A stretch of DNA of 44,360 nucleotides from Candidatus Harrisonbacteria bacterium CG10_big_fil_rev_8_21_14_0_10_44_23 (GTDB lineage Bacteria; Patescibacteriota; Minisyncoccia; UBA6257; 1-14-0-10-44-23). Location of the stretch: NCBI GenBank assembly GCA_002773475.1, contig PFBB01000023.1, positions 1 through 44,360 of the forward strand, read 5' to 3'. The position numbers and the translations under genes are program-made. The notes under the pieces were generated by a model. That model was not told the DNA's origin and did not search any database. It saw only the letters and a program-made list of their open reading frames with translations. This document shows, in pieces, positions 945-42,536 of the stretch. Numbering within the stretch: position 1 is the first letter of the stretch; each line of letters begins with the position of its first letter.

Positions 945-1532
945 ATGAAAATACTTCTTCCAATTTTGGCTATCTTGGTGATTGGCGGTGGGGTCTATGC
1001 CATAACCAATCTCAATAGTCAGCAACACCTCCAGCCCGACCCAGAGGGTGGTTTAAATGTGATTATCAACAATGGTGAGGTTGGCGACAATACCTCTGGT
1101 GGGTTAGAGGACTGTATTTGCACAATGCAATATGCGCCTGTTTGTGGCTCAGATGGAAAAACCTATGGAAATAGTTGTCAGGCGAATTGCGCAAACGTTG
1201 AGATAGTTAGCGAGGGGGAGTGCGAGTCTAGCGGAAACACTCAAGGAGGCACGGATATTGATGTAAATCGAAAAGGAGGAATCGGAAGTATCAGCGGGCA
1301 TGTAACTGGCTACACTGGGTTGGTTAGGGTAAGCGTGGTTGTGCCTCCAGGGGCAAACGAGCCATCAAGGATGTATGATGTTTATACCAACGCTAGCGGA
1401 TACTTTAGCTTTGAAGGCGGATCGGGGACGTATAAGGTGAAAGCTGATCCGGAGCATTTTGATGCCTGTCCAGTTAAGGAGGTGGTGATTGAGGCAGATA
1501 AAGTGGCGAATATAGAAATTTATTGCAACTAG
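945..1532 (+). CDS. secreted/membrane-anchored protein with a Kazal-type protease-inhibitor domain and a CarboxypepD_reg-like beta-sandwich region
   Basis: N-terminal hydrophobic helix. [37 protein letters not shown] matches the Kazal signature (PVCGSDGxTYxNxC). The C-terminal part ISGHVTG...[11 protein letters not shown] is typical of carboxypeptidase-regulatory-like domains. Confidence 0.7.
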
Positions 1533-10392: not shown

Positions 10393-12279
10393 ATGGCAAA
10401 AATAATTGGAATTGATCTAGGAACTACAAACTCAGCGGTGGCAATAACCGATACTGGGGAGCCAAGAATTTTGGAAAATACAGAAGGCAATAGGACTACC
10501 CCATCAATTGTGGCGGTTTCAAAAGCGGGGGAGAGAATTGCTGGGCTTTTAGCAAAGCGACAAGCAGTTACTAATCCAGCCAACACAATTTTTTCGGTAA
10601 AAAGATTGATTGGGCGAAAGTTTTCCGATGAAGAGGTGCAAAAAGACAAGAAATGGTTGCCATTTGATGTCCGCGAGGCAAGCAATGGAGGTGTAGAAAT
10701 TAAGATGGGAGAATCTTGGCAAACCCCAGAAGCGATTTCGGCGATGGTTTTGGCAAAGATTAAGACCGATGCTGAATCAAAATTAGGAGAAAAAGTAGAG
10801 GAGGCGGTGATCACAGTACCGGCTTATTTTGATGACAGTCAGAGGCAGGCAACAAAAAATGCAGGAGAGATTGCTGGCTTGAAAGTTCGCCGCATTATCA
10901 ACGAGCCAACGGCTGCCGCTTTGGCGTATGGGTTTAATAAAAAGAAAAATGAAAAAATCGTTGTTTACGATTTTGGAGGGGGGACTTTTGACGTGTCAGT
11001 TTTGGAAGTTGCCGATGATGTGGTTGAAGTAAAAGCGACAGGTGGAGACACTCACTTGGGTGGGGATGACTTTGACCAAAAAATCCAAGACTACTTGGTT
11101 TCAGAATATAAAAAGCAAGAAGGAATTGATATTTCTGGAGACTTTTTAGCGCTACAAAGATTGAAGGAGGGTGCGGAGAGGGCAAAGCACGAACTTTCAA
11201 CTTCGACGGAAACCGAAATTAACTTGCCCTACATTAGCTCAGATGCCTCTGGACCAAAACACTTCTTGATGAAATTGACTCGAGGGAAGTTGGAGGAGCT
11301 GGTTGCTGCTGACATTAAAAAATCAATCGAGATTACCGCTGGGGTTATTAAAGACGCTGGCTTTAAGAAAGAAGACATGGAGGAGATTGTGATGGTGGGA
11401 GGGCAAACTAGGATGCCGGCAATCTTAAATGCAGTAAAAGAATATTTTGGCAAAGAACCACACCGGGGGATTAACCCGGATGAAGTAGTTGCCTTGGGAG
11501 CGGCGGTGCAGGCTGGAATTTTGCAAGGAGATGTTAAGGACGTACTACTCTTAGACGTTATCCCTTTGTCTTTGGGAATTGAGACCTTGGGAGGAGTTTC
11601 GACTAAGTTGATTGAGAAAAATACAACCATACCGACTGAGAAGAGCCAGATTTTCTCTACTGCGGCGGACAATCAAACTCAAGTGGAAATACACATCTTG
11701 CAAGGAGAAAGAGAGATGGCGTCCGATAACAAGACTCTGGGAAGATTTATTTTGGACGGGATTCCGCCCGCCCCAAGAGGCACTCCACAAGTGGAGGTAA
11801 AATTTGATGTAGACGCAAACGGCATCTTGAATGTGTCAGCAAAAGACAAAGCAAGTGGAAAGGAGCAGTCGATTAAAATCGAGGCTTCAACTAGTTTGTC
11901 GAAGGACGAAATTGAGAAATTAAAACAAGATGCACAGGCGCACGCCGAAGAAGACAAAAAACGCCGAGAGCTGGTGGACGTTAAAAACACTGCGGACACT
12001 TTGGTGTATACTGCAGACAAGGCCATTAAGGATGCTGGAGACAAAATTTCCTCTGAAATAAAGTCAGAAGTTGAGTCAGCGATAAAAGATCTCAAAGAGG
12101 TTAAAGAGGGTTCTGATTTAGAGGAGATAAAGAAGAAGAGCGAGGCGCTTTCTGGTGTAATGCAAAAGATTGGGCAAGCAATGAATCAAGCCCAAGAGGC
12201 AAAGCCAGCAGATTCAGCTGAGTCTGACGGCGAGGCAGAAAATAAAGAAGAGCCGAATGCTGAAGAAGGATCTAAATAA
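10393..12279 (+). CDS. dnaK: molecular chaperone DnaK (Hsp70)
   Basis: [30 protein letters not shown]. 628 aa. Confidence 0.97.
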
Positions 12280-13285
12280 TTTGGAAGTATTTCCTGAGTC
12301 GCTATCTAAAAGAGTGAGTTTTAACTATTCTCGAAAATATCTAATACTGTTTGCTGGACTAGGTTTTTTTGCATCCCTGCTGCTGGGCTTCCTGATGCGA
12401 GAATTTTTAGTGTTGCCGACTCTAACAAGTGCTTTTTGGCTTTGTATTGGCGCGGCGATCTTGGCTTTGATCTTAGTCTTCCAAAATCTCTTTGTCTGCT
12501 CTACTCAAACATTTCTATGGGCTTCGGTGGTAGAGGCCTTTGGGTTATCGATTTTCTTGTTTAAGTTCTTTCATCCGTGGACGGTATTTGCGTTAGTGGC
12601 TTTATTGGCCACTGTGTTGTTTGGCCACCGGGAAGCGCACCGTGATTTAAATGATCGAGTGAAGGTTAGAATTCAGGACTTTATTAGGAAGGTATTAATT
12701 TTCTCGACAAGAGCAACGGCAATATTCTTTGCCCTCTTCCTATTGGGGATTTATGTGAGCAACGGGATTTCTCGACCAGCTTTTGATTTCTTTGTTGAGA
12801 TAAATAAGCCAACTCTGGAACCTTTTTTAGGACCAATTGATCTAAACCTACAGGCCAATGATTTCTTTACCGAGGTAGCGAAGGAGCAGATTAATCGACA
12901 ATTTAGTGGCACGGAGCAATTTCAGCATTTAGCTAGCGAGGGAGGATTAGAAGAGGCCTATGTTGGAGCTGGTAGAGAACTTAGAAATCAGGTTGTTGAA
13001 GTGACTAAGCTACCGGTGCGCGCCGATGAGAGCGCTAGTGAATATTTTTATCGCTTGAGTAGCGAAAAATTGCCCAAACCGGGAACCAACAACCAGCTAG
13101 GATTTTTAGGGTTTATGGTGGTGATGGTTTTGGTTGTATATTGGGCTTTAATGTTTTTCTTAACCATTGCAAGGATTTTAATTTTGAGCCCGCTAAGTTG
13201 GCTAATATATAGAATTTTGGCGGCAATGGGAGTAGTCTACATTGAAAGAGTGATGGCAGAAAAGGAAGAGCTGACGATTAAGTAG
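12257..13285 (+). CDS. multi-pass membrane protein of unknown function inserted between dnaK and dnaJ
   Basis: ORF track, with several hydrophobic helices. The start is uncertain: ATG 12257 overlaps the dnaK end, and an in-frame TTG at 12281 follows the dnaK stop. Confidence 0.5.
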
Positions 13286-16276: not shown

Positions 16277-17173
16277 ATGATTCCAATTATTAAATACAAG
16301 TTTGTATATCTTGGTATCGCAGCCATCTTAGTCTTAGCTAGCGTTGTTGCCTTGATAACATACGGACTAAACCTGGGTATAGATTTTACCGGAGGAACTT
16401 TGTGGCAAATCCAATTTCCGGAGACGGCCAGCATCGAGTCAGTTCGAGAAGTTTTTCACACTGATCTGGAGTCTCCAGAGGCGGTGGTTATTCGCAACGA
16501 TGTGGACGGGAGCTACAATGTGCATTTGAAGGAAATCAATGAGGAGATGCACCAAGACTTGTCTCAAAAGCTCGACGACAGGCTTGGGCCAATTGAAGAA
16601 AGATCCTTCCAGTCGATTAGCGGTGTGGTTGGAGGCGAGTTGGTAAAAAAAGCTGGTTGGGCAGTTCTTATTAACTTATTTGCTATTGTGCTTTACGTTG
16701 CTTATGCCTTTAGAAAGGTGAGCTATCCGGTAAAGTCTTGGAAATACAGCATCGCTACTTTAGTAGCCCTATTTCACGATGCATTAATTCCACTGGGCAT
16801 TTTTGCTGTTTTGGGAGTATTTGCCGGTGTGGAGATTGATACCAATTTTATTGTTGCGACTCTAATGGTAACTGGATTTTCGGTTCACGATACGATTGTG
16901 GTATTTGACCGAATTAGGGAAAACCTCAGAATCCGATCATCGAGAAAAGAAAGTTTTTCAAAAATTGTTAACGATAGCATTAACGAGACTATGGCTCGCT
17001 CCATTAACACCTCCTTAACCTTGCTGGTGGTTTTGGCGGCTATCTTTGTTCTTGGTGTGCCAACTCTCAACTATTTCATCTTGGTCATTCTTATAGGAAC
17101 GATTTTGGGAACCTACTCCTCAATCTTTGTGGCTAGTCCGCTTCTAACCCTATTGCAATCAAAGAAAAAGTAG
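16277..17173 (+). CDS. secF: protein translocase subunit SecF
   Basis: LGIDFTGGT motif and an RND-like TM bundle. It starts 1 nt after secD. Confidence 0.9.
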   Translation: MIPIIKYKFVYLGIAAILVLASVVALITYGLNLGIDFTGGTLWQIQFPETASIESVREVFHTDLESPEAVVIRNDVDGSYNVHLKEINEEMHQDLSQKLDDRLGPIEERSFQSISGVVGGELVKKAGWAVLINLFAIVLYVAYAFRKVSYPVKSWKYSIATLVALFHDALIPLGIFAVLGVFAGVEIDTNFIVATLMVTGFSVHDTIVVFDRIRENLRIRSSRKESFSKIVNDSINETMARSINTSLTLLVVLAAIFVLGVPTLNYFILVILIGTILGTYSSIFVASPLLTLLQSKKK

Positions 17174-17204
17174 GGAATAGCTTGACTTATTATGGTAAAT
17201 GTGG

Positions 17205-17230
17205 GACTCTGTGGAAACACAGAGTTCTTT
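17205..17230 (+). terminator. secF terminator
   Basis: CTCTGTG-GAAA-CACAGAG hairpin followed by TTCTTT. Confidence 0.6.
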
Positions 17231-17247
17231 GAGCTTGAGGAGATTGC

Positions 17248-17718
17248 ATGCGAGAGTGCGTCCTGGCCGGAGTGGCGATCGTAGTGGTCGTCTTAACACT
17301 TTTCTTGGTTGGGCCCAAGTTTCTGGAAGAAAACAGCTCGACCGAGATCCAGCGGATCCCTGTTCCGCCTGTCGGCAAGATGACCTTCCAGCCCTATGAG
17401 GGGCTGGTAGCGACAATGCCAGCCGGGTCGGAGGGCTACGTTGAAATTTCCGCCCTATACGAGGGCGACGACGGTTTGTATTTGCCCTCCACTACCCTGT
17501 ATTGGCTATCCTCTAGGGTGCCTGTCGAAAAGGAGGCGAGCATCGGGAAGGTATTGCTTCGGTGCGAGGCAGCGGGTTTCAAGCCCCAAGAGCAGAGGAT
17601 GCTCTATTTCGCAGACTGGGAGAGCGTTCCTGCTCTTGTGAAGCAACGGGTGCGGAGCCGCCTCGTCGTCCCTCCCAACATCGACAGTGACGGCTGGGTG
17701 GCGTTACAAGTTCTCTGA
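17248..17718 (+). CDS. hypothetical N-terminally membrane-anchored protein (156 aa) in a G+C-rich islet
   Basis: GAGGAG lies 5 nt before the ATG. The N-terminal helix is VLAGVAIVVVVLTLFLVG. Line 17341-17400 has 36/60 G+C. A hairpin follows the stop. Confidence 0.5.
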   Translation: MRECVLAGVAIVVVVLTLFLVGPKFLEENSSTEIQRIPVPPVGKMTFQPYEGLVATMPAGSEGYVEISALYEGDDGLYLPSTTLYWLSSRVPVEKEASIGKVLLRCEAAGFKPQEQRMLYFADWESVPALVKQRVRSRLVVPPNIDSDGWVALQVL

Positions 17719-17721
17719 GCG

Positions 17722-17748
17722 CTGGGGTGGCCCAACGGGCCGCCCCAG
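17722..17748 (+). terminator. G+C-rich hairpin after the islet ORF
   Basis: CTGGGGTGGCC/GGCCGCCCCAG (11 bp, one G-T pair). The following T-run is weak. Confidence 0.45.
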
Positions 17749-17767
17749 ACAAAATCTACAGATCCCC

Positions 17768-17796
17768 TTGACTTTATCCGGGAAAGTTGATATCTT
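17768..17796 (+). promoter_or_regulatory. sigma-70-like promoter (TTGACT, 17-nt spacer, TATCTT)
   Basis: -35 at 17768-17773 and -10 at 17791-17796, upstream of the 17845 gene. Confidence 0.5.
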
Positions 17797-17844
17797 ATTT
17801 CCATGTCTAAAATATGTCTAATTTGACTAATTTCTTAATAAAAT

Positions 17845-18903
17845 ATGGCAACAAAAACTAAGAGTTTAAAAACTCGACAAATCATAGAAGAGCTTTTCAA
17901 AGGTCTCGACCAAAGGCAGGAAAAAGTTTTGACCAAGCGTTATGGTCTAGATAATGGTGAGGAGCTCACTTTAGCTGAATTAGGAAAAATATTTTCTATC
18001 ACTCGAGAGAGAGTCCGACAGATTGAAGCGGCGGCCCTTAATCACGTAAGGGATCGAGCTACAGAAGGGCACCTTAATGCTTTAACTGAGGCAGTTTTAA
18101 ATACCTTAAAGAAAACCGGAGGGGTAAAGAAGGAGGAGCATCTCTTGGACGAAATCAATGGATTCGCAACTGGAGCTGACCTAGTCTCTGGATTTGCTCA
18201 ACAAGTTAAATTTCTCTTAGAGGTTTCAAAGGCGGTCTTATATCACAGAGAAGACGAGGCTTTTCATTCCCACTGGCACATGAGCGAACAACACCAAGAA
18301 AAGGCCATTAAATTCTTAGAGGACTTGATGAAGTCAATGAAAAGTAAAAAGAACGAGGTCCTCGAAGGGGAGAAGTTTGATGATTTCTTTGACGAAATAA
18401 GAGAATTGCACAAACTTGAAAAGGAAGTGGCTAAACACTACCTAAAGATTTCAAAGAAATTTAGCGAAAACATTTATGGTGATTTCGGTCTAGCGGAGTG
18501 GAAAGAGGTTCGACCAAAGGTGGCTAGAGACTGGATCTATCTGATTCTAAAAAAAGCTGGAAAGCCACTGCACTTTTCTAAGATCGCCGAAGAGATACGA
18601 AAGACAAGAGCAGGAAAGAAAACCAATACCCAGACCATTCACAACGAATTAATTAAAGACAAACGATTTATCTTGGTTGGCCGAGGTATGTATACCTTAA
18701 GAGAACTGGACGATATGCCAGCTGGCACAATCCGCGAGGTGTTGATGCATATCCTTAAAAAGGAAGGATCTTTAAACGCAAAGCAGATAATTGAGAAGGT
18801 GCTAAAGAATCGAATCTTCAAAGAGAACACAATCCTGTTTAATCTTCAAAACAAAAAATACTTTAAGCGTCGAAAGGACGGAAAGTACGAATTAGTTATA
18901 TAA
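17845..18903 (+). CDS. sigma-70 region-4 HTH plus C-terminal HARE-HTH domain protein (no region 2)
   Basis: N-terminus: VLTKRYGLDNGEELTLAELGKIFSITRERVRQIEAAAL (sigma region 4). C-terminus: WIYLILKKAGKPLHFSKIAEEI...IHNELIKDKRFILVGRGMYTLRE (HARE-HTH, as in the RNAP delta subunit). Confidence 0.65.
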   Translation: MATKTKSLKTRQIIEELFKGLDQRQEKVLTKRYGLDNGEELTLAELGKIFSITRERVRQIEAAALNHVRDRATEGHLNALTEAVLNTLKKTGGVKKEEHLLDEINGFATGADLVSGFAQQVKFLLEVSKAVLYHREDEAFHSHWHMSEQHQEKAIKFLEDLMKSMKSKKNEVLEGEKFDDFFDEIRELHKLEKEVAKHYLKISKKFSENIYGDFGLAEWKEVRPKVARDWIYLILKKAGKPLHFSKIAEEIRKTRAGKKTNTQTIHNELIKDKRFILVGRGMYTLRELDDMPAGTIREVLMHILKKEGSLNAKQIIEKVLKNRIFKENTILFNLQNKKYFKRRKDGKYELVI

Positions 18904-18905
18904 AA

Positions 18906-18936
18906 ATAAGCCCCGAGCAAATCGGGGCTTATTTTT
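18906..18936 (+). terminator. strong rho-independent terminator
   Basis: ATAAGCCCCGA-GCAAA-TCGGGGCTTAT followed by TTTT. Confidence 0.8.
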
Positions 18937-18944
18937 GGCTCTTC

Positions 18945-18953
18945 TGATATAAT
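18945..18953 (+). promoter_or_regulatory. extended -10 element TGATATAAT
   Basis: TGnTATAAT match. Its last T lies 7 nt before the ATG at 18961, which implies a leaderless or near-leaderless mRNA. Confidence 0.5.
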
Positions 18954-18960
18954 TAGAACT

Positions 18961-20238
18961 ATGATTACGGAGATTGCGCTACTGCTCTTAAACGCTATCT
19001 GGCCAATAGTTCTTTTGGTTGTTCTTTACAGGAGCTTCATTGTTTATTTATTGGCTTGGCGACAGAGTGAATATGAGGAAAAACAGTCTTGGACTATTTT
19101 AGAATTGCAGATTCCTCGAGAAATTAAACAAAGCGCTAAGGCAATGGACCAAGTGCTGCAGGTTTTACACACCGTCAATGATGATCCAACAGACCTAATT
19201 AAGAAATACTGGATAGGGCAGAAGACTTTGCCAATTTCTTTTGAAATGGTCAGCTTTGGAGGTGAGGTGCATTTTTATGTTCGAATTTTGTCCACCCACA
19301 GACAAGTTGTCGAAACTGCCTTTTTTTCTTTTTATCCGGATGTAGAGGTGCACGAAGTAGAAGACTATATGAAACAATTGCCGGAGACGGTAAAAGAATT
19401 AAGGATGCAAGGGAAGGAGGCGTTTAGTATGGACTTAAAATTAAACCGCGAAGGAGCATATCCGATTAAGTCTTACGTGGATTTTTCTGGAGGAGAAGAA
19501 GAGACTTCTGGCGACCCAATATCGGTATTTTTGGAAGTTTTAGGAAAGCTGAAGGATGGGGAATTTTTGGCAATTCATATTCATGGAGTTCCCTTAGATG
19601 CGAAAAAAAGGAAAAAGAAATATGAATCCTTGGTGAAGGAGCTGAGAAAAGACCCAGAACCGGGGGCAACGACTTTCCCCGGATTTAGAACGGATGAAGA
19701 AAACCGATCACTGTCAGCGTTGGAGCGCAACCTTTCAAAACCAGCATTTAATACAGCGGTGCGGTTTGCCTATGTTGCCCCGAAAGCGATTTTCTCTGGG
19801 GGATTCCCAAGGAGGGGGGTAATAAGCGCTTTCAATCAATATGCGGCGGCAGATCGAAACTCTTTTGCGCTAAACTGGCCAGCTGGTCCGTATGGCGATG
19901 TTTGGCACTGGCCTCACATTTTCCCCGACCTTAGGACTAAGTTGAGGGGGCAAAGGACTTGGTTAAATTTCCGTTTTAGAAATTGCGGCGCAATTGACGA
20001 TCTTCCAGACGTTTTGGGAGCGCACCCAATCAATTCAAATAAAAATTTGCAAGCTATTGAGCTAAGCACCGAAGGACTGGCAACGATATTCCACCCACCA
20101 ACTCAGGCGGTATTAACAGCGCCACATACAAAGAGGGTCGAAAGCAGGAAGGGGGCTGCCCCAGCTGGAGCACCGATATTTGCGGAAGAAAAAGAAATCG
20201 AAGAATTCACTAGGGTTGGCCAAGAAGGGGAAAACTAA
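18961..20238 (+). CDS. TM-anchored protein of unknown family (425 aa), first gene of the four-gene operon
   Basis: ORF track. The N-terminal hydrophobic segment is IALLLLNAIWPIVLLVVLY. No motif I can name. Confidence 0.6.
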   Translation: MITEIALLLLNAIWPIVLLVVLYRSFIVYLLAWRQSEYEEKQSWTILELQIPREIKQSAKAMDQVLQVLHTVNDDPTDLIKKYWIGQKTLPISFEMVSFGGEVHFYVRILSTHRQVVETAFFSFYPDVEVHEVEDYMKQLPETVKELRMQGKEAFSMDLKLNREGAYPIKSYVDFSGGEEETSGDPISVFLEVLGKLKDGEFLAIHIHGVPLDAKKRKKKYESLVKELRKDPEPGATTFPGFRTDEENRSLSALERNLSKPAFNTAVRFAYVAPKAIFSGGFPRRGVISAFNQYAAADRNSFALNWPAGPYGDVWHWPHIFPDLRTKLRGQRTWLNFRFRNCGAIDDLPDVLGAHPINSNKNLQAIELSTEGLATIFHPPTQAVLTAPHTKRVESRKGAAPAGAPIFAEEKEIEEFTRVGQEGEN

Positions 20239-20252
20239 CAAATAAAATTAAA

Positions 20253-20918
20253 ATGGCAGACGATAAGAAAAAAGAAGGAGACGGGCAGTCGCACTTTAGT
20301 GCGTTCTTCTTGATTGCTCTAGCTTTGATTTTATTTTTAATCTACACCTTCCTTCCCAGTGGTGGCGGACAAGCACTTTTAGGCTACCTTCCTGGTGGAC
20401 AAGTTGATGCCGGAGGAGCGGTGGGCTGGTTGGCTCATATTTGGTTTGATTTCTTTTGGCCAATGTTTATCTTCTTTGACGTACTACTGATTATTGGCTT
20501 GGTTCTTGTTTGGATAAAGGCTAGAAAGTATCACAGAGCTCCAAAACTATTTGATACCCCAATGGAGTCCTTGGCTAACGGAAAGAAGTTCTCGGTGGAC
20601 AAGCAAATCAGGAAAATTTGGTTTAAGGTAGTTGAACGAGCGCAAGGAGGGACACAGGAGTCTTGGAAATCAGCTATTTTAGAGGGAGATGCGGTGGTGG
20701 ATTTATTTTTGAAGAAGTATGGATATGAAGGAGATACGATGGCAGACAGATTGAGCCAGATAATCGAGCAGGAAGTTTCCGCGGTGGAGCAAGTTTGGAA
20801 GGCGCACCGGTTAAGAAATGACATTGCTCACACTCCTGGATTTGGGGTGAGCAAAAAAGACACCCAAGATGCCCTAACTGCATATCGAGATTTCCTTCGG
20901 GAGGTTGGAGTGATTTAG
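20253..20918 (+). CDS. 2-TM membrane protein with a soluble C-terminal domain bearing an Rx4H (HEPN-like) motif
   Basis: Two hydrophobic helices (FSAFFLIALALILFLIYTF and FWPMFIFFDVLLIIGLVLVWI). The C-terminal part has KAHRLRNDIAHTPG. It starts 14 nt after the previous gene. Confidence 0.6.
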   Translation: MADDKKKEGDGQSHFSAFFLIALALILFLIYTFLPSGGGQALLGYLPGGQVDAGGAVGWLAHIWFDFFWPMFIFFDVLLIIGLVLVWIKARKYHRAPKLFDTPMESLANGKKFSVDKQIRKIWFKVVERAQGGTQESWKSAILEGDAVVDLFLKKYGYEGDTMADRLSQIIEQEVSAVEQVWKAHRLRNDIAHTPGFGVSKKDTQDALTAYRDFLREVGVI

Positions 20919-20922
20919 TGTT

Positions 20923-22314
20923 ATGACAAACAACGAGCAACCACAAGATGAATTCCGTCTACAAACGGTAAAAACGGCTCCGCCGCCAGCGGAGTTGCCA
21001 ATTCTTGGCCAAGCCGATGAGCGGCAGGTTTCTTTTTTTGGCCGCACCAACTATGCCTCAGCTCTGGATGAAAAGAAGTTTGTTTTTGGGATCAAAAAAA
21101 ATGATCGCCGGTCAAATATGTATATTATCGGTAAGAGCGGGGTGGGGAAAAGTAAGTTGATGGAGCTGATGATTAGGCAGGACATCATGCGAGGAAGCGG
21201 GGTTTGTCTGATGGATCCGCACGGGGAAATGATTGATGATCTTCTGCATTTTATCCCCGAGGATAGGATAAAAGACGTTATAATATTTGATCCTAATGAC
21301 AAGGAAGCACCGATTGCTTTTAATCCGTTTGCGAACGTGCATGAAGATTTTCGATATCAGATGGCGCAGGGATTAATAGAAATAATGCAGGCACAATTTG
21401 GCTCTCAATGGAGCGCTGGCATGGAACACGTTTTCCGTTTTGCAGTTTTAGCGCTAAACCAATATCCAAAAGCAACTGTTCGGGGCTTGGCTGAGATTTT
21501 TAATAATCCTCAATATCGAGAGGAGGTGGCAAAATACAGCAGCGATGAGATGGTGAAAAGATTTTGGCTGAGTGAGTACGCTCACCTTGCCTCTCAATCT
21601 AAAATGCAAAGAGAAGTGATAACTCCCTTGGTTAATAAGCTGAGCCAATTTCTATTTGATCCATTATTAGGGAAGACCTTTTCATCTCCGGAGCACAAGT
21701 TTAGTGTTGAAAAATCGATAGAGGAGAAGAAAATAATTTTGATTAACTTGGCGAGGGGGAAGCTAGGAAAAGAAAACTCTAGCTTTTTAGCAAGTTTATT
21801 GCTTCTCAAGATTAAGCAGGCGGGGATGACAAGAATGCGGCTAGCTGATCGAGAGCGAGAAGATTTTTATTTGTATATTGATGAATTTCATCACTTAGTT
21901 ACGGAAACGTTTGAAAATTTACTCTTTGAGGGGAAGAAATATCATATCCCTCTAACGATTTCCCATCAGTACTTAGGGCAGGTGGTTAGCCATTTTCAAA
22001 ACTCCGTTTTAGCAAATATTGGGACTTTGGTGGTGTTTCGTTTGGGGGGTGATGACGCAACAAAGATTGAATCAGAGTTGGCGCCGATCTTTAAAGCGAA
22101 AAATATTATCAACCTTGGTCGAAGACAATTTTATATTAAAATGCTGATTGACGGAGAGCCCCACGATCCATTTTCTGCTGAGGTTTTAAAGGTGCTTTCT
22201 CCTAGGCATAAGTCATTTAGGAGGGAGATCATCGATGCTGCGAGGGGGCATTATTCAATCAGCCCAGAGTCTCCGGTGATGCAAATAGGGATGAAGGAGG
22301 AAACAGCTAAATAA
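20923..22314 (+). CDS. soluble VirD4/TraD/TrwB-like (FtsK-HerA superfamily) P-loop ATPase, paralog 1
   Basis: Walker A IIGKSGVGKS, Walker B DFYLYIDEFH, and KKYHIPLTISHQYLGQ. There is no N-terminal TM helix. It starts 4 nt after the previous gene. Confidence 0.7.
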   Translation: MTNNEQPQDEFRLQTVKTAPPPAELPILGQADERQVSFFGRTNYASALDEKKFVFGIKKNDRRSNMYIIGKSGVGKSKLMELMIRQDIMRGSGVCLMDPHGEMIDDLLHFIPEDRIKDVIIFDPNDKEAPIAFNPFANVHEDFRYQMAQGLIEIMQAQFGSQWSAGMEHVFRFAVLALNQYPKATVRGLAEIFNNPQYREEVAKYSSDEMVKRFWLSEYAHLASQSKMQREVITPLVNKLSQFLFDPLLGKTFSSPEHKFSVEKSIEEKKIILINLARGKLGKENSSFLASLLLLKIKQAGMTRMRLADREREDFYLYIDEFHHLVTETFENLLFEGKKYHIPLTISHQYLGQVVSHFQNSVLANIGTLVVFRLGGDDATKIESELAPIFKAKNIINLGRRQFYIKMLIDGEPHDPFSAEVLKVLSPRHKSFRREIIDAARGHYSISPESPVMQIGMKEETAK

Positions 22315-22327
22315 ACTAACTGGTATA

Positions 22328-24121
22328 ATGACAGATATGGATCAGCAGCCAATTGAGGGACCAAGAAAGAAAGACGTAGTCTATTTTGCGCGAACTAATT
22401 TTAGAAATGAGAGTCGGCTTTTTGGTATAAAGAGAAAAGATCGTCGCCAGCACATGTATGTAATCGGAAAGACGGGTACTGGTAAATCGGTTTTGTTGCA
22501 AAATTTGATTGCTCAGGATATTCGCAACGGAGAGGGTGTGGCGGTAGTGGATCCGCACGGAGAGTTAGTAGAGACTTTGATGAAAATGATTCCTCGCGAA
22601 CGGGCGAATGACGTTGTCTATTTTAACCCCGCTGACACGGAATATCACATTGGTTTTAATCCATTGGAGGTGAAAGACCCGAAACACAAACACTTAGTTG
22701 CTTCAGGTTTGATGGCCATCTTTACCAAAATCTGGGCAAACGTTTGGTCGGCTAGGATGGAATACATTTTAAGTAATGCAGTTTTGGCGCTTTTAGACAC
22801 GCCAAATGCAACCTTGTTGGGAATTACTCGGATTTTAGTAGACAAGGCATATAGGCAAAAGATTGTTGACACTATTCAAGACCCGGTGGTGCGCTCATTT
22901 TGGATGAATGAGTATGAAGAGTGGCAAGATAAGTTTAGAAACGAAGCCATCGCACCTATCCAAAACAAAGTTGGACAATTCTTATCCACCGCTTTAATTA
23001 GAAACGTAGTTGGTCAGCCAAAAAGTACGATTGATATTTTTGAAATGATGAATAGCAACAAGATATTTTTAGTAAACGTATCGAAGGGAAGAATTGGAGA
23101 AGACAACTCCGCTCTTTTAGGCGCAATGTTGATTACCAAGATCCAATTGGCGGCGATGGAACGGGTTAGAATCCCAGAAGACGAAAGAAAAGACTTTTAT
23201 CTATATGTCGATGAGTTTCAAAACTTTGCTACGGATTCGTTTGCGGGAGTCTTGTCGGAAGCTAGAAAATATAGATTAAATTTAACTATTGCACACCAAT
23301 ATATTGGACAATTGATAACTGATATGTCGACGAAGGTCCGGGACGCAGTGTTTGGAAACACGGGGACGATGATTGTTTTTAGAGTTGGGGCGGCAGATGC
23401 GGAGGCGCTGGAGAGTGAGTTTACTCCTGAGTTTGGAGTTCAAGACATTGTTAATTTACCGAATTACCAAATTTACGTTAAGTTGATGGTGGATGGGATT
23501 AGCCGAAGACCTTTTTCGGCGAGCACGCTTCCTCCGTTTCTCCCACCCAGACTGGCTGTGGGTGAGGAGGAAATTATACAAGGGGCGCGAGAACGTTATG
23601 GAAATCCTCGAGAGGTGGTTGAGGATCAAATCCAGTCTTGGAGCCGAAGCCTACCAGGAACTAACGGAACCACCGTGAGTGCACCGGTAAGAGCAGGGAA
23701 GCCAATGGTTGATTCTGAAGATGGGATAGTTAAGGCGGAATGTTCAGTGCCCGGATGCACGCGAGTGGCAAAACTAAGATTTAAACCAGACCCAAACCGA
23801 CCGGTGTATTGTTCGGTCCACTATGAAATGCTAGACAAAGGGGAGATTGAGCCGGTTAAAATATTGAAACGGCCAGCACCGGATAAGTTAGACCGAGCAA
23901 AGACTGGGTTATCAAATCTTGGCATTGAGTTTGAGCCAAGGGGCGGGGTGCGCCGAGAGGAAGGTAGGAATAAAAATCGTCGTCGAAGTCGGTCGGGGCC
24001 GATTTCCTTAACGAATTTAAATAAGGATGAAAAAACAAAGAGGGAGAAGCCGATCGATCAAGAAAAAATAGAAAAGCTAAAACAGGAGATAAAAAATAGT
24101 ACTGAAAAAAAGGAGGGCTAG
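22328..24121 (+). CDS. soluble VirD4/TraD/TrwB-like P-loop ATPase, paralog 2, with a C-terminal Zn-ribbon-like motif and a basic tail
   Basis: Walker A VIGKTGTGKS, Walker B DFYLYVDEFQ, and RKYRLNLTIAHQYIGQL. It is colinear with paralog 1. The C-terminus has CSVPGC...FKPDPNRPVYCSVH followed by an R/K-rich tail. Confidence 0.7.
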   Translation: MTDMDQQPIEGPRKKDVVYFARTNFRNESRLFGIKRKDRRQHMYVIGKTGTGKSVLLQNLIAQDIRNGEGVAVVDPHGELVETLMKMIPRERANDVVYFNPADTEYHIGFNPLEVKDPKHKHLVASGLMAIFTKIWANVWSARMEYILSNAVLALLDTPNATLLGITRILVDKAYRQKIVDTIQDPVVRSFWMNEYEEWQDKFRNEAIAPIQNKVGQFLSTALIRNVVGQPKSTIDIFEMMNSNKIFLVNVSKGRIGEDNSALLGAMLITKIQLAAMERVRIPEDERKDFYLYVDEFQNFATDSFAGVLSEARKYRLNLTIAHQYIGQLITDMSTKVRDAVFGNTGTMIVFRVGAADAEALESEFTPEFGVQDIVNLPNYQIYVKLMVDGISRRPFSASTLPPFLPPRLAVGEEEIIQGARERYGNPREVVEDQIQSWSRSLPGTNGTTVSAPVRAGKPMVDSEDGIVKAECSVPGCTRVAKLRFKPDPNRPVYCSVHYEMLDKGEIEPVKILKRPAPDKLDRAKTGLSNLGIEFEPRGGVRREEGRNKNRRRSRSGPISLTNLNKDEKTKREKPIDQEKIEKLKQEIKNSTEKKEG

Positions 24122-24134
24122 AAGCCCTCTTTTG
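24112..24134. terminator. bidirectional hairpin shared by the operon and convergent efp
   Basis: GGAGGGC-TAGAA-GCCCTCT followed by TTTT. Both stop codons lie in or near the loop. Confidence 0.6.
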
Positions 24135-24702
24135 ATTTTTCTATTCGGCTTGAGTAAGCGCCGTCTTGAGTGTTGACCTGAATAATGTCTCCGTTGTTTA
24201 CGAATAGGGGAACATTGATAGTGGCTCCGGTTTCTAAGACTGCTTTTTTCGTGCCTCCAGTGGCGGTATCTCCCTTTTCTCCGGGTGGGGTCTCTTTAAC
24301 CACTAATTCTGCTTTAATTGGCCAATTGATGGAGATTATCTTTCCCTCAAACTTTTGGGCCTGAACCTCAGTGTTGGCTTTGATAAAGTTGGCTTGAGCG
24401 CCAGCAATATTTTCAGGTATAGAAAATCGATTGCTGGGGTTGGCTGGATCGCAAAACCAAAATTCCCCGCGATTGTTGTAGAGATATTTGGCGTTTTCAA
24501 CTTCCATATCGGCTTCTTCAAAGCTTTCATTCATGTGGAAGTTTCTTTGAAGCACCTTTCCATTAAGTAGGTTTTTAAAATCAAGCTGCATCACTGGCTT
24601 TCTTTGCTGTTTGCGTAAAAAAGCGGCATTCACAACTTGGTGGGGTTGGCCCTCGTAAATAAAGACGATTCCCGGTTTTAGTTCGTTGTAGCTTAATGAC
24701 AT
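24118..24702 (-). CDS. efp: elongation factor P
   Basis: It aligns without gaps by eye to E. coli EF-P over the N-terminal ~50 residues. GDTATGGTK and VPLFV motifs are present. Confidence 0.9.
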   Translation of the reverse strand: MSLSYNELKPGIVFIYEGQPHQVVNAAFLRKQQRKPVMQLDFKNLLNGKVLQRNFHMNESFEEADMEVENAKYLYNNRGEFWFCDPANPSNRFSIPENIAGAQANFIKANTEVQAQKFEGKIISINWPIKAELVVKETPPGEKGDTATGGTKKAVLETGATINVPLFVNNGDIIQVNTQDGAYSSRIEKSKEGF

Positions 24703-27063: not shown

Positions 27064-28497
27064 ATGTTGGCTCACCAGAAATTTTTCTGGATGATTGCAT
27101 TCTTTTTGCTAGGAGTGTTTCTGGCCAGTTTGTTTTCGGCATTATCTTCAGCTTTTTGGCTAGCTTCCCTAATCGGGGGGCTTTTTGTTTTATTATTACT
27201 TTTATTTAGAGCAAAAGTTTTTGCCTGGATGGCAATTTTTATATTAGTGGGAGCGGGATATTTTCAGCTGGATGAATCTTTTTATCAAAATAGAGGTAAG
27301 CTGCCGGACGAAGGTAGTGCCTTTACGGCGGTGGTAGTGGGGCGGAGGATAAGCGGTAAAAGTCAGAGATTGGACTTAGACCTAGGAAAACCGTACTCGG
27401 GAAAGGTGCGAATATATGCCTCTCTGTATCCAGACTATCGCTACGGCGATAGATTGAGCGTTTACGGCGATTTAATTGCGCCAGAGGGGGATGGGTCTCA
27501 ATATTATCGAAAGGAGCGCATTTTGGCGATATCGGCCTTTCCAGAATTAGAGAAAATTGGAGAGGGAGGGGGGTTCTTTTTAAAGCGTTGGTTGTTGGCT
27601 TTGCGAGATATGGTGGCGGATAGTTTTTGGGAAAATCTTAGCCCAGACGAGGCGGGCTTTATGACGGGGATAACTTTGGGCAAAAGTGCGGAGTTAACTG
27701 ATGAGTTTGAGGAAGACCTACGACTAACTGGGACAACTCATTTGATTGCTTTGTCGGGATACAACATCACAATAATTTCTAAGTATTTCTTCAGCTTCTT
27801 ACTTTTGTTTTTGGCAAGGCGGAGGGCTTTTATTTTTAGCATCTTGGCGATTGGACTATTTGTTTTAATGACAGGAGCAGAAGCGTCGGTGGTTAGAGCG
27901 GGGGTGATGGGTGTGCTGATCTTGGTTGCAAATCAAAGTGGCAGGATCTATTCATTTAAAAATGCCATCGCGTTTACGGCGCTAATTATGACCTTGTTTA
28001 ATCCTCGGATTTTGGTGTTTGATATTGGATTTCAGCTTTCTTTTGCCGCTCTCTTGGGAATCGTGTATCTGCGGCCAGCGATTGAGGGATTTTTTTCAGT
28101 CAATCCGGCTCCGGGGTTTTTAGCGTGGCGGGATAATTTACTTACAACCGTTGCCGCACAGTTGGCGGTCTTACCAATTTTGATTAATACCTTCGGTTTT
28201 GTTTCTTTGGTGTCAGTGCTGACGAATGTTTTAATCTTGACCTTTATTCCAGTCACGATGCTTTTGGGACTTTTAATCTTCATTGCCTCAATCGCTTCCA
28301 AATATGTTTCCTTGGTTTTTGCCCTTTTGGCTAAACCGTTCCTAGTTTATGAGCTGGGAGTAATTAAGGGGTTTGCGAATTTTGCTTTTGGTTTGGAGTT
28401 AGACAACTTGCCGCTGGTTTTTACAGCTTTGTTTTATGGGGCGTTAATTGGATTTATTTTGTACAATAAAAAAAGAGCCCCTAGCCTGTTTGTTTAA
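27064..28497 (+). CDS. comEC: ComEC/Rec2 competence channel, N-terminal and Competence-domain part only
   Basis: Polytopic membrane protein with TGTTHLIALSGYNITI (Competence domain motif). It stops at TAA 28495-28497, before any metallo-beta-lactamase domain. Confidence 0.8.
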   Translation: MLAHQKFFWMIAFFLLGVFLASLFSALSSAFWLASLIGGLFVLLLLLFRAKVFAWMAIFILVGAGYFQLDESFYQNRGKLPDEGSAFTAVVVGRRISGKSQRLDLDLGKPYSGKVRIYASLYPDYRYGDRLSVYGDLIAPEGDGSQYYRKERILAISAFPELEKIGEGGGFFLKRWLLALRDMVADSFWENLSPDEAGFMTGITLGKSAELTDEFEEDLRLTGTTHLIALSGYNITIISKYFFSFLLLFLARRRAFIFSILAIGLFVLMTGAEASVVRAGVMGVLILVANQSGRIYSFKNAIAFTALIMTLFNPRILVFDIGFQLSFAALLGIVYLRPAIEGFFSVNPAPGFLAWRDNLLTTVAAQLAVLPILINTFGFVSLVSVLTNVLILTFIPVTMLLGLLIFIASIASKYVSLVFALLAKPFLVYELGVIKGFANFAFGLELDNLPLVFTALFYGALIGFILYNKKRAPSLFV

Positions 28498-28498
28498 T

Positions 28499-29353
28499 AT
28501 GGAACGAAACTGGAAATTAATTCTATTAATACTTGGCATTCTACTAATTTTGAATGTTTTAGTTTGGATCCAAGCTTTGAGTGACAAGGGGGTGTCTGAA
28601 GCAGTTTATTTTATTGATGTGGGGCAAGGGGATAGCTCTTTAATTGTTTTTGAGAGCGGAGAAAAGGTTTTAATTGATGGCGGCAGGGACGGGAGGGTTT
28701 TATTGGAGGAGTTGGACAAGGTTTTAAATGACTCGGATAGATATATTGATTTAGTGATTTTAAGTCATGGGCACTTTGACCATTATGGCGGTTTGATTGA
28801 GCTGATGAAAAATTATGAGATTGGTGCATTTTTATCTTCAGGAAGAATTGGGGAAGCGGAGGCCTATGGACAACTGCAAACCGAAATAGAGAGAAGAAAA
28901 ATTAAATTCTTAAATTTGGCGGAGGGAGATAGCCTGCAGTTTTCTGGGGCTAATATCGAAGTGTTGTCGCCGTCGGCGAGGGAGATTTTGTCGGAGGACG
29001 TAAACTTAGCCTCGCTAGTTTTGCTTCTCGACCTTCAACCCGGTAACGTAATTTTTACGGGGGATATTGATAAGAATGTGGAAAAAAGATTGATAAAAGA
29101 TTATGAAGTGCTAGATGTTGATGTTTTGAAGGTGGCGCATCAAGGATCAAAGTATTCTAGTGATATAAATTTTTTAGCACAGGTTAGCCCGGCATTGTCG
29201 GTGATTATGGTTGGCCCAAACACCTATGGGCATCCTCACAAAGAGACCTTGGATAACTTAAGTCCGATTAGTGAGGTGGTGAGGACGGATGAGAAGGGGA
29301 CGATGAAACTTGAGGCGCAAAATGGAGAGTTTATGCTCTACAGCGTTAAATAG
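28499..29353 (+). CDS. membrane-anchored MBL-fold hydrolase (ComEC C-terminal domain as a separate ORF)
   Basis: The ATG lies 1 nt after the comEC stop. It has its own TM helix (WKLILLILGILLILNVLVWI), FIDVGQGDS and an HGHFDHYGG (HxHxDH) motif. The ORF-track start at 28448 overlaps comEC. Confidence 0.8.
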   Translation: MERNWKLILLILGILLILNVLVWIQALSDKGVSEAVYFIDVGQGDSSLIVFESGEKVLIDGGRDGRVLLEELDKVLNDSDRYIDLVILSHGHFDHYGGLIELMKNYEIGAFLSSGRIGEAEAYGQLQTEIERRKIKFLNLAEGDSLQFSGANIEVLSPSAREILSEDVNLASLVLLLDLQPGNVIFTGDIDKNVEKRLIKDYEVLDVDVLKVAHQGSKYSSDINFLAQVSPALSVIMVGPNTYGHPHKETLDNLSPISEVVRTDEKGTMKLEAQNGEFMLYSVK

Positions 29354-42038: not shown

Positions 42039-42536
42039 CTATTGATTTATTGGCAGTGCGGTGGAGGTAAGGGAGTGAGTAGCCTGCTGCTGCGGGTTAT
42101 CGCTAATGTAGGAAAATGTTAAGGATAGCTCAACAGTTTTGACTCCATTTGAGCCGGTTTTTTCGGTATAGGTGAAATCATCTACATTAACTCTTTGGCT
42201 GGTAAGAGGGGTAGCACCAGCGTCGGGTGGGTCAATAATAATTGCTCCACTAGTAAGTTCGATCTTAGTATTTCCGCTGGCGTCGTGGACGATAATTCTT
42301 TGGCTGTTGATAGTCATGGAGTCTGAGTCACGGATTTCTTGTTTGATTCGACTCATGACAAAGTTTAATTCACTCAGGACTTGGTTGGAGGCGCTTTGAT
42401 GATTTTGCAGCCGTAAGATAGTTACCAAAACTCCGGAAAAAAGCCCCAGCAAGACAGCGGTGAGCCCAACATAAATCAAGAGCTCAATAAGGCTGAAGCC
42501 GTGATTGGATTTTCGTGATTTTTTATCAATTTGCAC
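42039..42536 (-). CDS. type IV pilin / pseudopilin-like protein with a prepilin N-terminal methylation motif
   Basis: KSNHG|FSLIELLIYVGLTAVLLGLF is a class III signal peptide (G/FxLIE). Confidence 0.8.
   Translation of the reverse strand: MQIDKKSRKSNHGFSLIELLIYVGLTAVLLGLFSGVLVTILRLQNHQSASNQVLSELNFVMSRIKQEIRDSDSMTINSQRIIVHDASGNTKIELTSGAIIIDPPDAGATPLTSQRVNVDDFTYTEKTGSNGVKTVELSLTFSYISDNPQQQATHSLTSTALPINQ

Follow-up and report, generated by a model that had tools for sequence, protein, structure and literature searches.

A DUF8128 locus of Patescibacteria as a candidate membrane-tethered ATPase motor split into separate polypeptides

Introduction

Type IV coupling proteins (T4CPs), such as VirD4, TraD, and TrwB of R388 (PDB 1E9R), carry a P-loop nucleotide-binding domain of the FtsK-HerA superfamily and an N-terminal transmembrane (TM) domain on the same polypeptide, and they are linked to a relaxase and/or the channel genes of a type IV secretion system (T4SS). 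In this work, we analyzed a locus of four genes, here called g1 to g4 (locus tags COU09_02135 to COU09_02150), from a metagenome-assembled genome of Candidatus Harrisonbacteria (Patescibacteria). The window, i.e., the whole stretch of DNA that was analyzed, comprises 44,360 nucleotides of the contig PFBB01000023.1. The g3 and g4 proteins share the nucleotide-binding domain of the T4CPs; however, they lack the TM domain, which is apparently provided in trans by g1, and they are chromosomal, vertically inherited, duplicated, and without linkage to a relaxase or T4SS. We interpret the locus as encoding an ATPase motor of the VirD4/VirB4 superfamily that is fixed in the chromosome, housekeeping-grade, tethered to the membrane, and split into separate polypeptides, and we assign to this interpretation a probability of roughly 0.55.

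The closest described genes were reported by Quinonero-Coronel et al. 2025 (PMC12102498), who found 5,713 VirD4-type T4CP homologues in 2,918 of 3,035 Patescibacteria genomes (96%), about two per genome, with 148 of the 5,713 located near virB4. In the same study, VirB4 was present in 2,417 of the 3,035 genomes (80%), TrsD was abundant beside virB4, and relaxases were nearly absent from the phylum (109 in 103 genomes). The T4CP homologues were suggested to be 'exapted for other functions', and t4cp genes were noted to lie often away from virB4 in conjugative systems. For S. epibionticum, the T4SS genes were found to be essential (PMC12102498), and its T4SS cluster was described without a recognisable coupling protein (Wang et al. 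2023).

The g3 and g4 proteins are almost certainly members of these orphan Patescibacteria T4CP homologues. A preliminary description of the locus had stated that it matched no known system, which does not hold for the ATPases and does hold for the operon partners and the split architecture, as we did not find these described. PMC12102498 does not describe the DUF8128 anchor, the TM-HEPN-like partner, the split/fusion link, the distinction between g3 and g4, or the synteny with secDF and with a sigma4/HARE-HTH gene (sigma-70 region 4 plus HARE-HTH). The full-text literature search returned no paper mentioning DUF8128 and none tying HEPN to these genes in Patescibacteria. As far as we searched, the new elements are DUF8128 as a detached, VirB4-N-domain-like anchor of these ATPases, the clade-specific TM-HEPN-like partner arriving with the second paralogue, the neighbourhood with secDF and the sigma4/HARE-HTH gene, and a relationship that ties the module to one-piece proteins encoded by large Bacillus phages and, probably, also to an actinobacterial plasmid protein.

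Other known systems resemble parts of the locus. TraD has an acidic tail that binds the relaxosome, whereas g4 ends in a zinc-ribbon and a basic tail. The VirB4/TrsE systems rely on a VirB4-type ATPase, in contrast to the VirD4-type ATPases found here, and the locus has no VirB6, VirB8, or pilin context. TrsD (pGO1/pSK41-type) is a precedent for a VirB4-like N-terminal domain (NTD) encoded as a separate gene just upstream of an ATPase. Additionally, VirB4 is tethered to the membrane by VirB3, a small partner with two TM segments (PMC12102498), and g1 and g2 might do the same for g3 and g4.

Results

The g1 protein as the detached half of one-piece proteins

The g1 protein belongs to DUF8128 (PF26449), as given by the precomputed Pfam annotation of an identical protein and of nearly all homologues. 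The family comprises 2,552 representatives at 50% clustering, and its motifs are very strong: in the alignment of g1 with homologues of about 42% identity, 48 columns are invariant. The preliminary description had presented g1 as an N-terminally anchored protein without a nameable motif; the N-terminal TM segment was recovered, and the remainder can now be named as DUF8128, a detached anchor domain. The AlphaFold2 (AF2) model of g1, with a predicted local distance difference test (pLDDT) of 79 and a predicted TM-score (pTM) of 0.78, starts with a helix at aa 2-41 and predicts a single-pass TM protein whose cytoplasmic part is an alpha/beta domain; its fold resembles the VirB4 NTD, which is the membrane-docking domain of VirB4. 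When the model was searched against PDB with Foldseek, the top 14 matches were all TrwK/VirB4 of the R388 T4SS (E 1.6e-5 to 2e-3, probability 0.97-1.0), and the following hits were unrelated and much weaker. The g1 fold also matches gp155 of phage G, which Pfam places in the VirB4 type (C-terminal P-loop_TraG and AAA_10). From these models, a VirB4-N-domain-like fold of g1 is moderately supported. Membership of g1 in the TrsD family was rejected, as no similarity to pSK41 TrsD was detected; HHalign of the g1 profile against this protein gave a probability of 0.4%, a weak test with a single template sequence.

One-piece proteins of Bacillus phages carry the counterparts of g1 and of the ATPases on one polypeptide. 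Within PHROG 5156 (824 positions), g1 matches positions 75-186, and g3 and g4 match positions 396-805 (E 1e-50 and 1e-57). For gp156 of Bacillus phage G (825 aa), the g1 profile aligned with residues 29-167 at a probability of 92% in HHalign, the g1 hidden Markov model (HMM) matched residues 50-261 (E 5e-8), pairwise BLAST gave an E-value of 1.7e-5, and Foldseek of the g1 model against BFVD gave an E-value of 5e-17 with a TMq of 0.51. Foldseek also retrieved the 913-aa homologue of phage JL (E 5e-15) and a protein of phage Slash (E 1e-13). The tblastn search of g1 against phage and plasmid collections returned no match, and the connection with the phage proteins came to light only through HMM, HHalign, or Foldseek comparisons. 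The N-terminal halves of gp156, SPO1 gp27.4 (906 aa), and the JL protein match g1 by fold or HMM, and the C-terminal halves of the one-piece proteins, including an 812-aa T4CP from an Embleya plasmid, are 25-35% identical to g4.

The concatenated g1 and g4 sequences are colinear with gp156, SPO1 gp27.4, and the Embleya T4CP. The break between g1 and g4 maps to residue 370 of 825 in gp156, 412 of 906 in SPO1 gp27.4, and 399 of 812 in the Embleya protein, which is just 5' of Walker A and just past a common motif, ELxxLxH(L/P)P. The g1 protein is, hence, the detached N-terminal half of one-piece TM-NTD-ATPase proteins, and g3 and g4 lack TM anchors because this anchor half is apparently supplied in trans.

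The conserved C-terminal segment of g1 (aa 374-406, Table 1) is colinear with the ELxxLxH(L/P)P motif at the pre-ATPase junction of gp156, SPO1 gp27.4, and the Embleya T4CP, and it is therefore a former interdomain linker. Nine of its residues (A374, T375, H378, P380, V384, T386, P388, H389, and G403) are invariant in 25 g1 homologues, and aa 388-414 are modelled with pLDDT below 50. This segment is a candidate docking peptide for g3 and g4.

The Embleya T4CP has an N-terminal TM segment, like g1, and its C-terminal half is 34.6% identical to g4 (E 1e-69). On the plasmid, its gene sits between the gene of a VirB4-type ATPase and that of a replication-relaxation protein, and PrgI and NlpC/P60 are encoded close by. 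Given this transfer-cluster setting, a g4-type ATPase serves as the coupling protein of real transfer systems elsewhere, whereas the module analyzed here adjoins no such apparatus. The Embleya N-terminus aligns weakly with g1 in HHalign (E 0.011), and only the colinearity and the common motif are claimed for this pair. In contrast to the split module, the one-piece proteins are single polypeptides on mobile elements and have no g2-like HEPN partner.

Further observations were made on these relatives. Phage G encodes gp155, a VirB4-type ATPase, and gp156, a T4CP-type ATPase, in tandem (L087:2196-6338), which parallels the g3/g4 pair. SPO1 gp27.4 lies at L095:3747-6467, and the records of the phage one-piece proteins give no function or only tentative similarity notes. 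The gp156 record says 'MsbA-like', which Pfam does not back (DUF87 and TraG-D_C were found instead). The closest relative found outside Patescibacteria is a stand-alone 395-aa ATPase, 39.5% identical to g4, on the Sulfitobacter mediterraneus plasmid NZ_CP081110 (L086:6986-8173); it lies beside transposases and may reflect horizontal transfer.

The ATPases g3 and g4

The g3 and g4 proteins are paralogues with 39% identity (E 4e-114). In both, Walker A and Walker B are separated by a long insert, as seen with the all-alpha domain of the T4CPs. TrwB_AAD_bind scored 49 bits in g3 and 59 bits in g4 (Pfam cutoff 20.5), T4SS-DNA_transf scored 22.2 and 36.2 bits (cutoff 20.1), and DUF87 was above its gathering score in both proteins (37.7 bits in g3). 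TraG-D_C passed its cutoff of 22 in g4 only, with 29.9 bits. AAA_10 was marginal in g4 (29.9 bits against a cutoff of 27.5) and reached 20.1 bits in g3, with the T4CP models scoring higher in both, and P-loop_TraG remained below cutoff in both. These results agree with the preliminary description, which had read g3 and g4 as colinear paralogues of the VirD4/TrwB class without N-terminal TM anchors: the Walker motifs are at the expected places, and neither protein has a hydrophobic segment. A VirB4-type ATPase domain on one polypeptide with the NTD was not found, as the protein is split.

The remaining comparisons were more distant. TrwB is the sole solved structure that g4 matches by sequence, around the P-loop only, and in the comparison of g4 and g3 with pSK41 TrsK, a canonical Gram-positive T4CP, the Walker motifs alone align. 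The NCBIfam equivalog cutoffs were missed by far (at best 63.7 against 366 bits for SXT_TraD and 46 against 250 bits for CD1115). The FtsK_SpoIIIE motor domain reached 18 bits in g4 against a cutoff of 24 and covered the P-loop only. A replacement of FtsK by g4 was considered and rejected; work on the Saccharibacterium TM7x mentions FtsK, and g4 scores sub-threshold with the FtsK model of Pfam.

The preliminary description had allowed that the ATPases might prove degenerate. The Walker A glycine and lysine of g3 are present in all 62 aligned orthologues (2 of 64 rows are gapped), D320 and E321 of its Walker B in 64/64 and 63/64 orthologues, respectively, and both Walker motifs of g4 are kept in all aligned orthologues. 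As Walker A and the D-E pair of Walker B are conserved, neither paralogue is degenerate. By sequence, g3 is a diverged paralogue without the C-terminal tail and with its catalytic motifs intact, and g4 is the ancestral, most conserved motor. Zinc ligands C472, C477, and C495 of g4 were found in 16 of 16 sequences, and the fourth ligand is H or C. The zf_Tbcl_2 and TIGR04272 models are sub-threshold in g4, yet they are annotated in most close homologues. The zinc-ribbon and the basic tail of g4 would suit nucleic-acid binding.

The g2 protein

Hydropathy predicted TM segments at aa 11-39 and 63-92 of g2, forming a two-TM hairpin. The C-terminal domain (aa ~115-221) is all-alpha in the AF2 model, with pLDDT above 90, and carries an R-N-x3-H motif within RLRNDIAH, as the preliminary description had noted. 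The motif is conserved in 71-75 of 79 orthologues (R188 in 74, N189 in 75, and H193 in 71), it is invariant in 12 database homologues, and the wider consensus reads A-H-(R/K)-x-R-N-x-L-V-H-x-P-G-F. A conserved R-N-x3-H is the signature of metal-independent RNases. The top Foldseek match of g2 was the HEPN protein AF_0298 (2hsb; probability 0.99, E 0.11), followed by several HEPN domains of HepT and Csm6. The HEPN-type motif noted there was supported by its conservation, and the HEPN_Swt1 profile stayed below threshold. A HEPN-like C-terminal domain is plausible from motif and model but not proven.

The motif of g2 fits the R-x4-6-H pattern of the HEPN superfamily, and R-N-x3-H in a C-terminal all-alpha domain is what g2 has in common with the HEPN domains of the Swt1-like/DUF4145, HepT, and Csm6 types. 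Compared with HepT and Csm6, g2 is anchored by two TM segments, is vertically inherited, and has no antitoxin or CRISPR context. The g2 protein is a clade-specific accessory that co-occurs with g3.

Three other assignments for g2 were rejected. The N-terminus of Rpb5 gave a PDB profile match (E 0.007), with RNA_pol_Rpb5_N in 2 of 32 orthologues; it does not share R-N-x3-H and was judged spurious. The match of the TM region to Holin-X (E 7e-5) was below cutoff and represents a generic TM-hairpin similarity. A fusion of g2 to the longer ATPase or the longer DUF8128 protein of L090 was also discarded.

Conservation and synteny of the module

We compared 160 loci, comprising 80 reference-genome loci of the window's clade (close loci) and 80 divergent DUF8128 loci from metagenomes, and the synteny counts refer to loci with enough sequence on the relevant side. 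The module recurs across these 160 loci. Among the close loci, g2 directly follows g1 in 77 of 78, and an ATPase follows g2 in 64 of 68 (61 g3-type and 3 g4-type), with median gaps of 4 nt between g1 and g2 and 8 nt between g2 and g3. The g4 gene lies at most 4 kb from g1 in 10 of 55 close loci, and the tight g3-g4 junction of the window was seen in 2 of 12 loci. Thus, the stand-alone four-gene operon that had been proposed is correct in that its genes co-occur in other genomes, but it is a derived, minority layout placed in a larger block; g1-g2-g3 is the unit conserved in the clade.

The divergent loci had a different composition. The g2 gene was found in none of the 80 (absent in 48/48 with room), and a g4-type ATPase directly follows DUF8128 in 37 of the 48 with room. 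Divergent loci that were inspected one by one agree with these counts, and the single ATPase of the divergent clades is 58-60% identical to g4 compared with 35-36% to g3. Since these loci have no g2 and their single ATPase is g4-type, the ancestral module consisted of DUF8128 and a g4-type ATPase, and g2 and g3 are a later, joint, clade-specific insertion.

Some loci deviate from these layouts. At L175:6806-11879, DUF8128, a g4-type ATPase, and a g3-like ATPase (41% identical) are in tandem without g2, which looks like an independent or intermediate state of duplication. At L136:8481-12604 and L151:8397-9602, a GT4 glycosyltransferase gene follows DUF8128 instead of the ATPase, and L136 also has a DUF4012 protein; the ATPase of such loci must be encoded elsewhere or be absent.

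The module sits in a deeply conserved block, secD-secF-(sigma4/HARE-HTH)-g1. The sigma4/HARE-HTH gene is directly upstream of g1 in 69/73 close and 32/60 divergent loci, and secD-secF is upstream in 55/61 close loci and also in many divergent loci. The sigma4/HARE-HTH protein has Pfam matches to Sigma70_r4 (aa ~10-72, E 3.5e-15) and HARE-HTH (aa ~232-288, E 7.8e-9), and its PDB matches are to sigma region 4 of RpoD/SigA only. This unusual architecture belongs to the most constant upstream neighbour of DUF8128, and the protein might serve the module as a regulator or as a DNA-binding partner.

Median identities to the window proteins, computed in the same genomes, were 65% for g4, 55% for g3, 55% for SecD, 54.5% for EF-P, 50% for SecF, 41% for g1, 40% for sigma4/HARE-HTH, and 34% for g2. 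The DUF8128 module is kept across deep divergence, with g1 down to about 25% identity. The module is near-universal in Patescibacteria and under housekeeping-grade selection; given its presence in nearly all Patescibacteria and the slower evolution of g4 compared with SecD and EF-P, it must matter to the cell.

A ComEC gene and a pseudopilin gene had been noted elsewhere in the window, and both are present, at 27064-29353 and at 42039-42536 on the minus strand. ComEC is split and lies 3 kb downstream of g4. Among the informative close loci, ComEC comes after g4 in 4 of 8 (5 of 9 counting the window), and it does so in 0 of 25 divergent loci; in two distant relatives, a split ComEC directly follows DUF8128 ahead of PilM (L169:5429-7878 and L170:2997-5410). 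MnmA, located between g4 and ComEC in the window, recurs 3' of the ATPase in 10 of the 25 divergent loci. The use of the ComEC linkage as functional evidence was rejected, and its proximity is given little functional weight because an old syntenic block is the simplest reading.

Organization of the locus and transcription signals

The four genes are on the plus strand with intergenic gaps of 14, 4, and 13 nt, exactly as the preliminary description had given them. By hydropathy, g1 has a single TM segment and g2 has two; g3 and g4 have none. The coordinates of the features are shown in Table 1.

Table 1. Positions of the genes, motifs, and signals of the locus in the window.
Feature	Position	Strand	Description
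Sigma-70 region 4 + HARE-HTH gene	17845-18903	+	352 aa, directly upstream of g1
Intrinsic terminator closing the sigma4/HARE-HTH gene	18906-18936 (~18901-18937)	+	16-bp stem, then U-run
Extended -10 element TGATATAAT	18945-18953	+	Ends 7 nt before the g1 ATG
g1	18961-20238	+	425 aa, DUF8128 (PF26449)
g1 N-terminal TM helix, aa 1-34	18961-19062	+	Kyte-Doolittle 19-residue window, peak 2.58
g1 conserved C-terminal segment, aa 374-406	20080-20178	+	ATIFHPPT..LTAPH.KRVESRK..PAG
g2	20253-20918	+	221 aa, 2 TM + HEPN-like domain
g2 R-N-x3-H motif RNDIAH, aa 188-193	20814-20831	+	HEPN-type
g3	20923-22314	+	463 aa, soluble T4CP-type ATPase
g3 Walker A GKSGVGKS	21130-21153	+	
g3 Walker B DFYLYIDE	21862-21885	+	
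g4	22328-24121	+	597 aa, soluble T4CP-type ATPase
g4 Walker A GKTGTGKS	22466-22489	+	
g4 Walker B DFYLYVDE	23192-23215	+	
g4 zinc-ribbon	23741-23821	+	CxxC-x17-CxxC type
g4 basic low-complexity tail	23822-24118	+	Lys/Arg-rich
Bidirectional terminator hairpin	24109-24133	both	Common to g4 and convergent efp
efp (EF-P)	24118-24702	-	Convergent with g4
Split ComEC, two overlapping open reading frames	27064-28497 and 28448-29353	+	Competence/DUF4131 channel part; metallo-beta-lactamase part

Both hairpins said to bracket the genes fold strongly. The upstream hairpin, which lies between the sigma4/HARE-HTH gene and g1, has a folding energy of -23.7 kcal/mol (z -5.75), and 0 of 200 shuffles equal it. 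The g4 stop codon lies inside the downstream hairpin, which folds on either strand (-17.3 and -13.9 kcal/mol) and is, hence, a bidirectional terminator common to g4 and the convergent efp.

The extended -10 element was found as described, and a leaderless transcript had been proposed from it together with the lack of room for a Shine-Dalgarno (SD) sequence. The SD argument is uninformative because SD-like motifs are rare throughout the window (about 8 of 40 genes). The leaderless start itself gained support from the orthologues: a -10-like hexamer, usually a perfect TATAAT, ends 6-8 nt before the candidate start in 22 of 80 g1 orthologues, compared with 4/78 for g2, 4/64 for g3, 5/71 for sigma4/HARE-HTH, and 4/62 for secF at the same spacing. 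In secD, another first gene, the hexamer occurs at this distance in 15 of 59. These counts support g1 as the head of a transcription unit, and a leaderless or near-leaderless g1 mRNA is plausible from the sequence. The g1 and secD hexamers also suggest that leaderless mRNAs are common in this clade. The Rfam scan of the window found tRNAs only, with no riboswitch or leader.

The gene content of the window is purely housekeeping: RecR, DnaB, CysRS, CorA, GrpE-DnaK-DnaJ, SecD, SecF, EF-P, MnmA, the split ComEC, LepA, MurB, and SecA. As the preliminary description had reported for relaxase and T4SS genes, none was found within the 44-kb window, nor was any integrase gene, and the related loci with annotated genes showed no T4SS or relaxase linkage either. 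The base composition is even, and neither a compositional anomaly nor repeats nor mobile-element genes were detected in the window.

Other features of the window were recorded. The region 17174-17844, between secF and the sigma4/HARE-HTH gene, is GC-rich and has open reading frames (ORFs) in several frames; the bin 17001-18000 reaches the window maximum of GC (0.48), the 156-aa ORF at 17248-17718 has no Pfam match, and Rfam gives nothing in the region at its gathering threshold. An ORF of about 340 aa (12257-13285, plus strand) without Pfam match sits between dnaK and dnaJ. The same order is present in a distant relative (L001:878-1891); this ORF is an uncharacterised member of the chaperone operon. 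At 945-1532 (plus strand), a gene encodes a Kazal-type serine protease inhibitor domain and a CarboxypepD_reg domain, and it adjoins an ECF-type sigma factor gene (1592-2161). The pseudopilin, or type IV pilin-like protein, carries the prepilin motif GFSLIELL.

Discussion

Proposed mechanism and points against it

In the mechanism that we propose, g1 would recruit the soluble P-loop motors to the membrane, probably via its invariant C-terminal segment. The g4 protein would act as the ancestral motor with a T4CP-type nucleotide-binding domain, and g3 as a catalytically intact paralogue that came in with g2. The g2 protein would place its HEPN-like domain on the cytoplasmic face and may add RNA cleavage or binding in this clade. 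By analogy with TrwB/VirD4 and VirB4, the motors would assemble into ATP-driven rings at the membrane and move a polymer by feeding or pulling it, with nucleic acid as the likeliest substrate. The physical assembly, the rings, their substrate, and the direction of transport are what we infer from the homologies. The likeliest role of the module is membrane-tethered nucleic-acid translocation, possibly in the service of a distant chromosomal T4SS.

Several points weigh against this interpretation. The t4cp homologue of S. epibionticum is non-essential for epibiotic growth (PMC12102498), which is awkward beside the strong conservation of the module. The binding of g1 to g3 and g4 is itself something we infer, and no channel component is encoded nearby. 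The likeness of g1 to the VirB4 NTD is one of predicted fold, with a low TMq (0.28-0.35), and no sequence-level signal links g1 to the N-terminus of VirB4, TrsD, or TrsE or to solved structures. In the Embleya T4CP, the DUF8128 HMM finds no match in the N-terminal domain. The zinc-ribbon of g4 is not universal, since the Cys motif occurs in only 6 of 39 divergent g4-type tails, and most of the others are long, charged, and of low complexity. The HEPN assignment of g2 is sub-threshold: every Foldseek E-value is above 0.1, and HEPN_Swt1 scores 17.6 bits (E 0.0048) against a Pfam cutoff of 27.5, matching 2 of 32 orthologues.

Alternative explanations

The chromosomal T4SS of Patescibacteria comprises VirB4, TrsD, VirB3/6/8, and pilins and usually maps near dnaA; g3 and g4, anchored by g1, might be its genuine coupling proteins with genes far from the rest of the system, which would make the locus an ordinary, if dispersed, part of a known T4SS. 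This explanation overlaps ours and differs only in an obligatory T4SS partnership, and we regard it as possible but doubtful. It draws on the wide occurrence of VirB4-type T4SS in the phylum and the frequent separation of t4cp from virB4, on the 35% identity of g4 to the T4CP of a conjugation-like actinobacterial cluster, and on the gap that a T4CP encoded elsewhere would fill in the S. epibionticum T4SS cluster. However, the T4CP homologues are commoner than VirB4 (96% against 80% of genomes) and seldom near it, the T4SS of S. epibionticum is essential and its t4cp homologue is not, and relaxases are scarce in the phylum. Additionally, the module has its own dedicated anchor and is syntenic with secDF rather than with T4SS genes. 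The secDF linkage itself raises another option, namely a dislocase of membrane proteins or pilins, or a secretion accessory, that extracts or inserts envelope proteins without nucleic-acid transport. A role of VirB4 in dislocating pilin from the membrane has been proposed, and the VirB4-NTD-like fold predicted for g1, the frequent secD-secF genes upstream, and the presence of SecA and a pseudopilin in the window would fit such a role. Nevertheless, the ATPase domains score best with DNA-binding T4CP families, the zinc-ribbon and basic tail of g4 point to nucleic acids, as do the HARE-HTH neighbour and the HEPN-like partner, and the adjacency to secDF may be part of an old syntenic block, given that MnmA and ComEC also recur downstream. 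We consider this role quite unlikely.

An anti-phage or anti-plasmid defence or surveillance system, with a HEPN RNase effector and HerA/FtsK-type ATPases, had been put forward in the preliminary description. Bacterial HEPN domains are mostly found in conflict systems, the R-N-x3-H motif of g2 is conserved, and the ATPases have weak PADLOC matches to MADS mad8 (E ~1e-14) and to HerA models. On the other hand, g1 and g2 have no PADLOC match, no other component of MADS or HerA systems is nearby, and in most clades a HEPN partner is missing from the core module. The greater conservation of g4 compared with SecD and EF-P and the purely housekeeping context make a defence island or mobile element improbable, as do the near-universal presence, fixed position, steady vertical inheritance, typical composition, and lack of mobile-element genes; defence is, in our judgement, highly unlikely. 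The remaining explanation is that the locus is what a decaying conjugative element or prophage left behind after integration and that it has no present role in the cell; it is suggested by the nearest non-Patescibacteria relatives, which reside on plasmids and in Bacillus phages. Intact catalytic motifs, strong purifying selection, and conservation across deep divergence, in the absence of an integrase, repeats, or compositional anomaly, leave this explanation with hardly any probability, and conservation effectively refutes it.

Significance

The split motor that we propose has implications at several levels. DUF8128 as an anchor half gives a testable architecture in which the residues for interaction and catalysis are defined. 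The pairing of a VirB4-like N-domain with a VirD4-like motor links both types of ATPase, which is relevant to the evolution of T4SS, and the relationship offers a structural context for proteins that lack annotation in the large Bacillus phages G and SPO1.

Patescibacteria account for a large share of bacterial diversity. They are unable to synthesize nucleotides, amino acids, or lipids, and the way in which they obtain macromolecular building blocks is an acknowledged open problem. Growth did not depend on the competence genes, so nucleotides must be acquired by some other route (PMC11665869), and the uptake of host RNA by a cultivated Patescibacterium was shown with a mechanism that 'remains unresolved' (bioRxiv 10.64898/2026.06.21.733656). 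It is conceivable, but in our view unlikely, that nucleic-acid parasitism in Patescibacteria has its missing energy-coupling device in this module. The tethered motor would then import host RNA or DNA through the chromosomal T4SS or another conduit, and in Paceibacteria-type lineages g2 would cleave the incoming RNA at the cytoplasmic face. If this were true, a coupling protein would be run inward and a HEPN domain would work in housekeeping rather than in defence, and the module would bear on the question of how Patescibacteria acquire nucleotides and take up host RNA.

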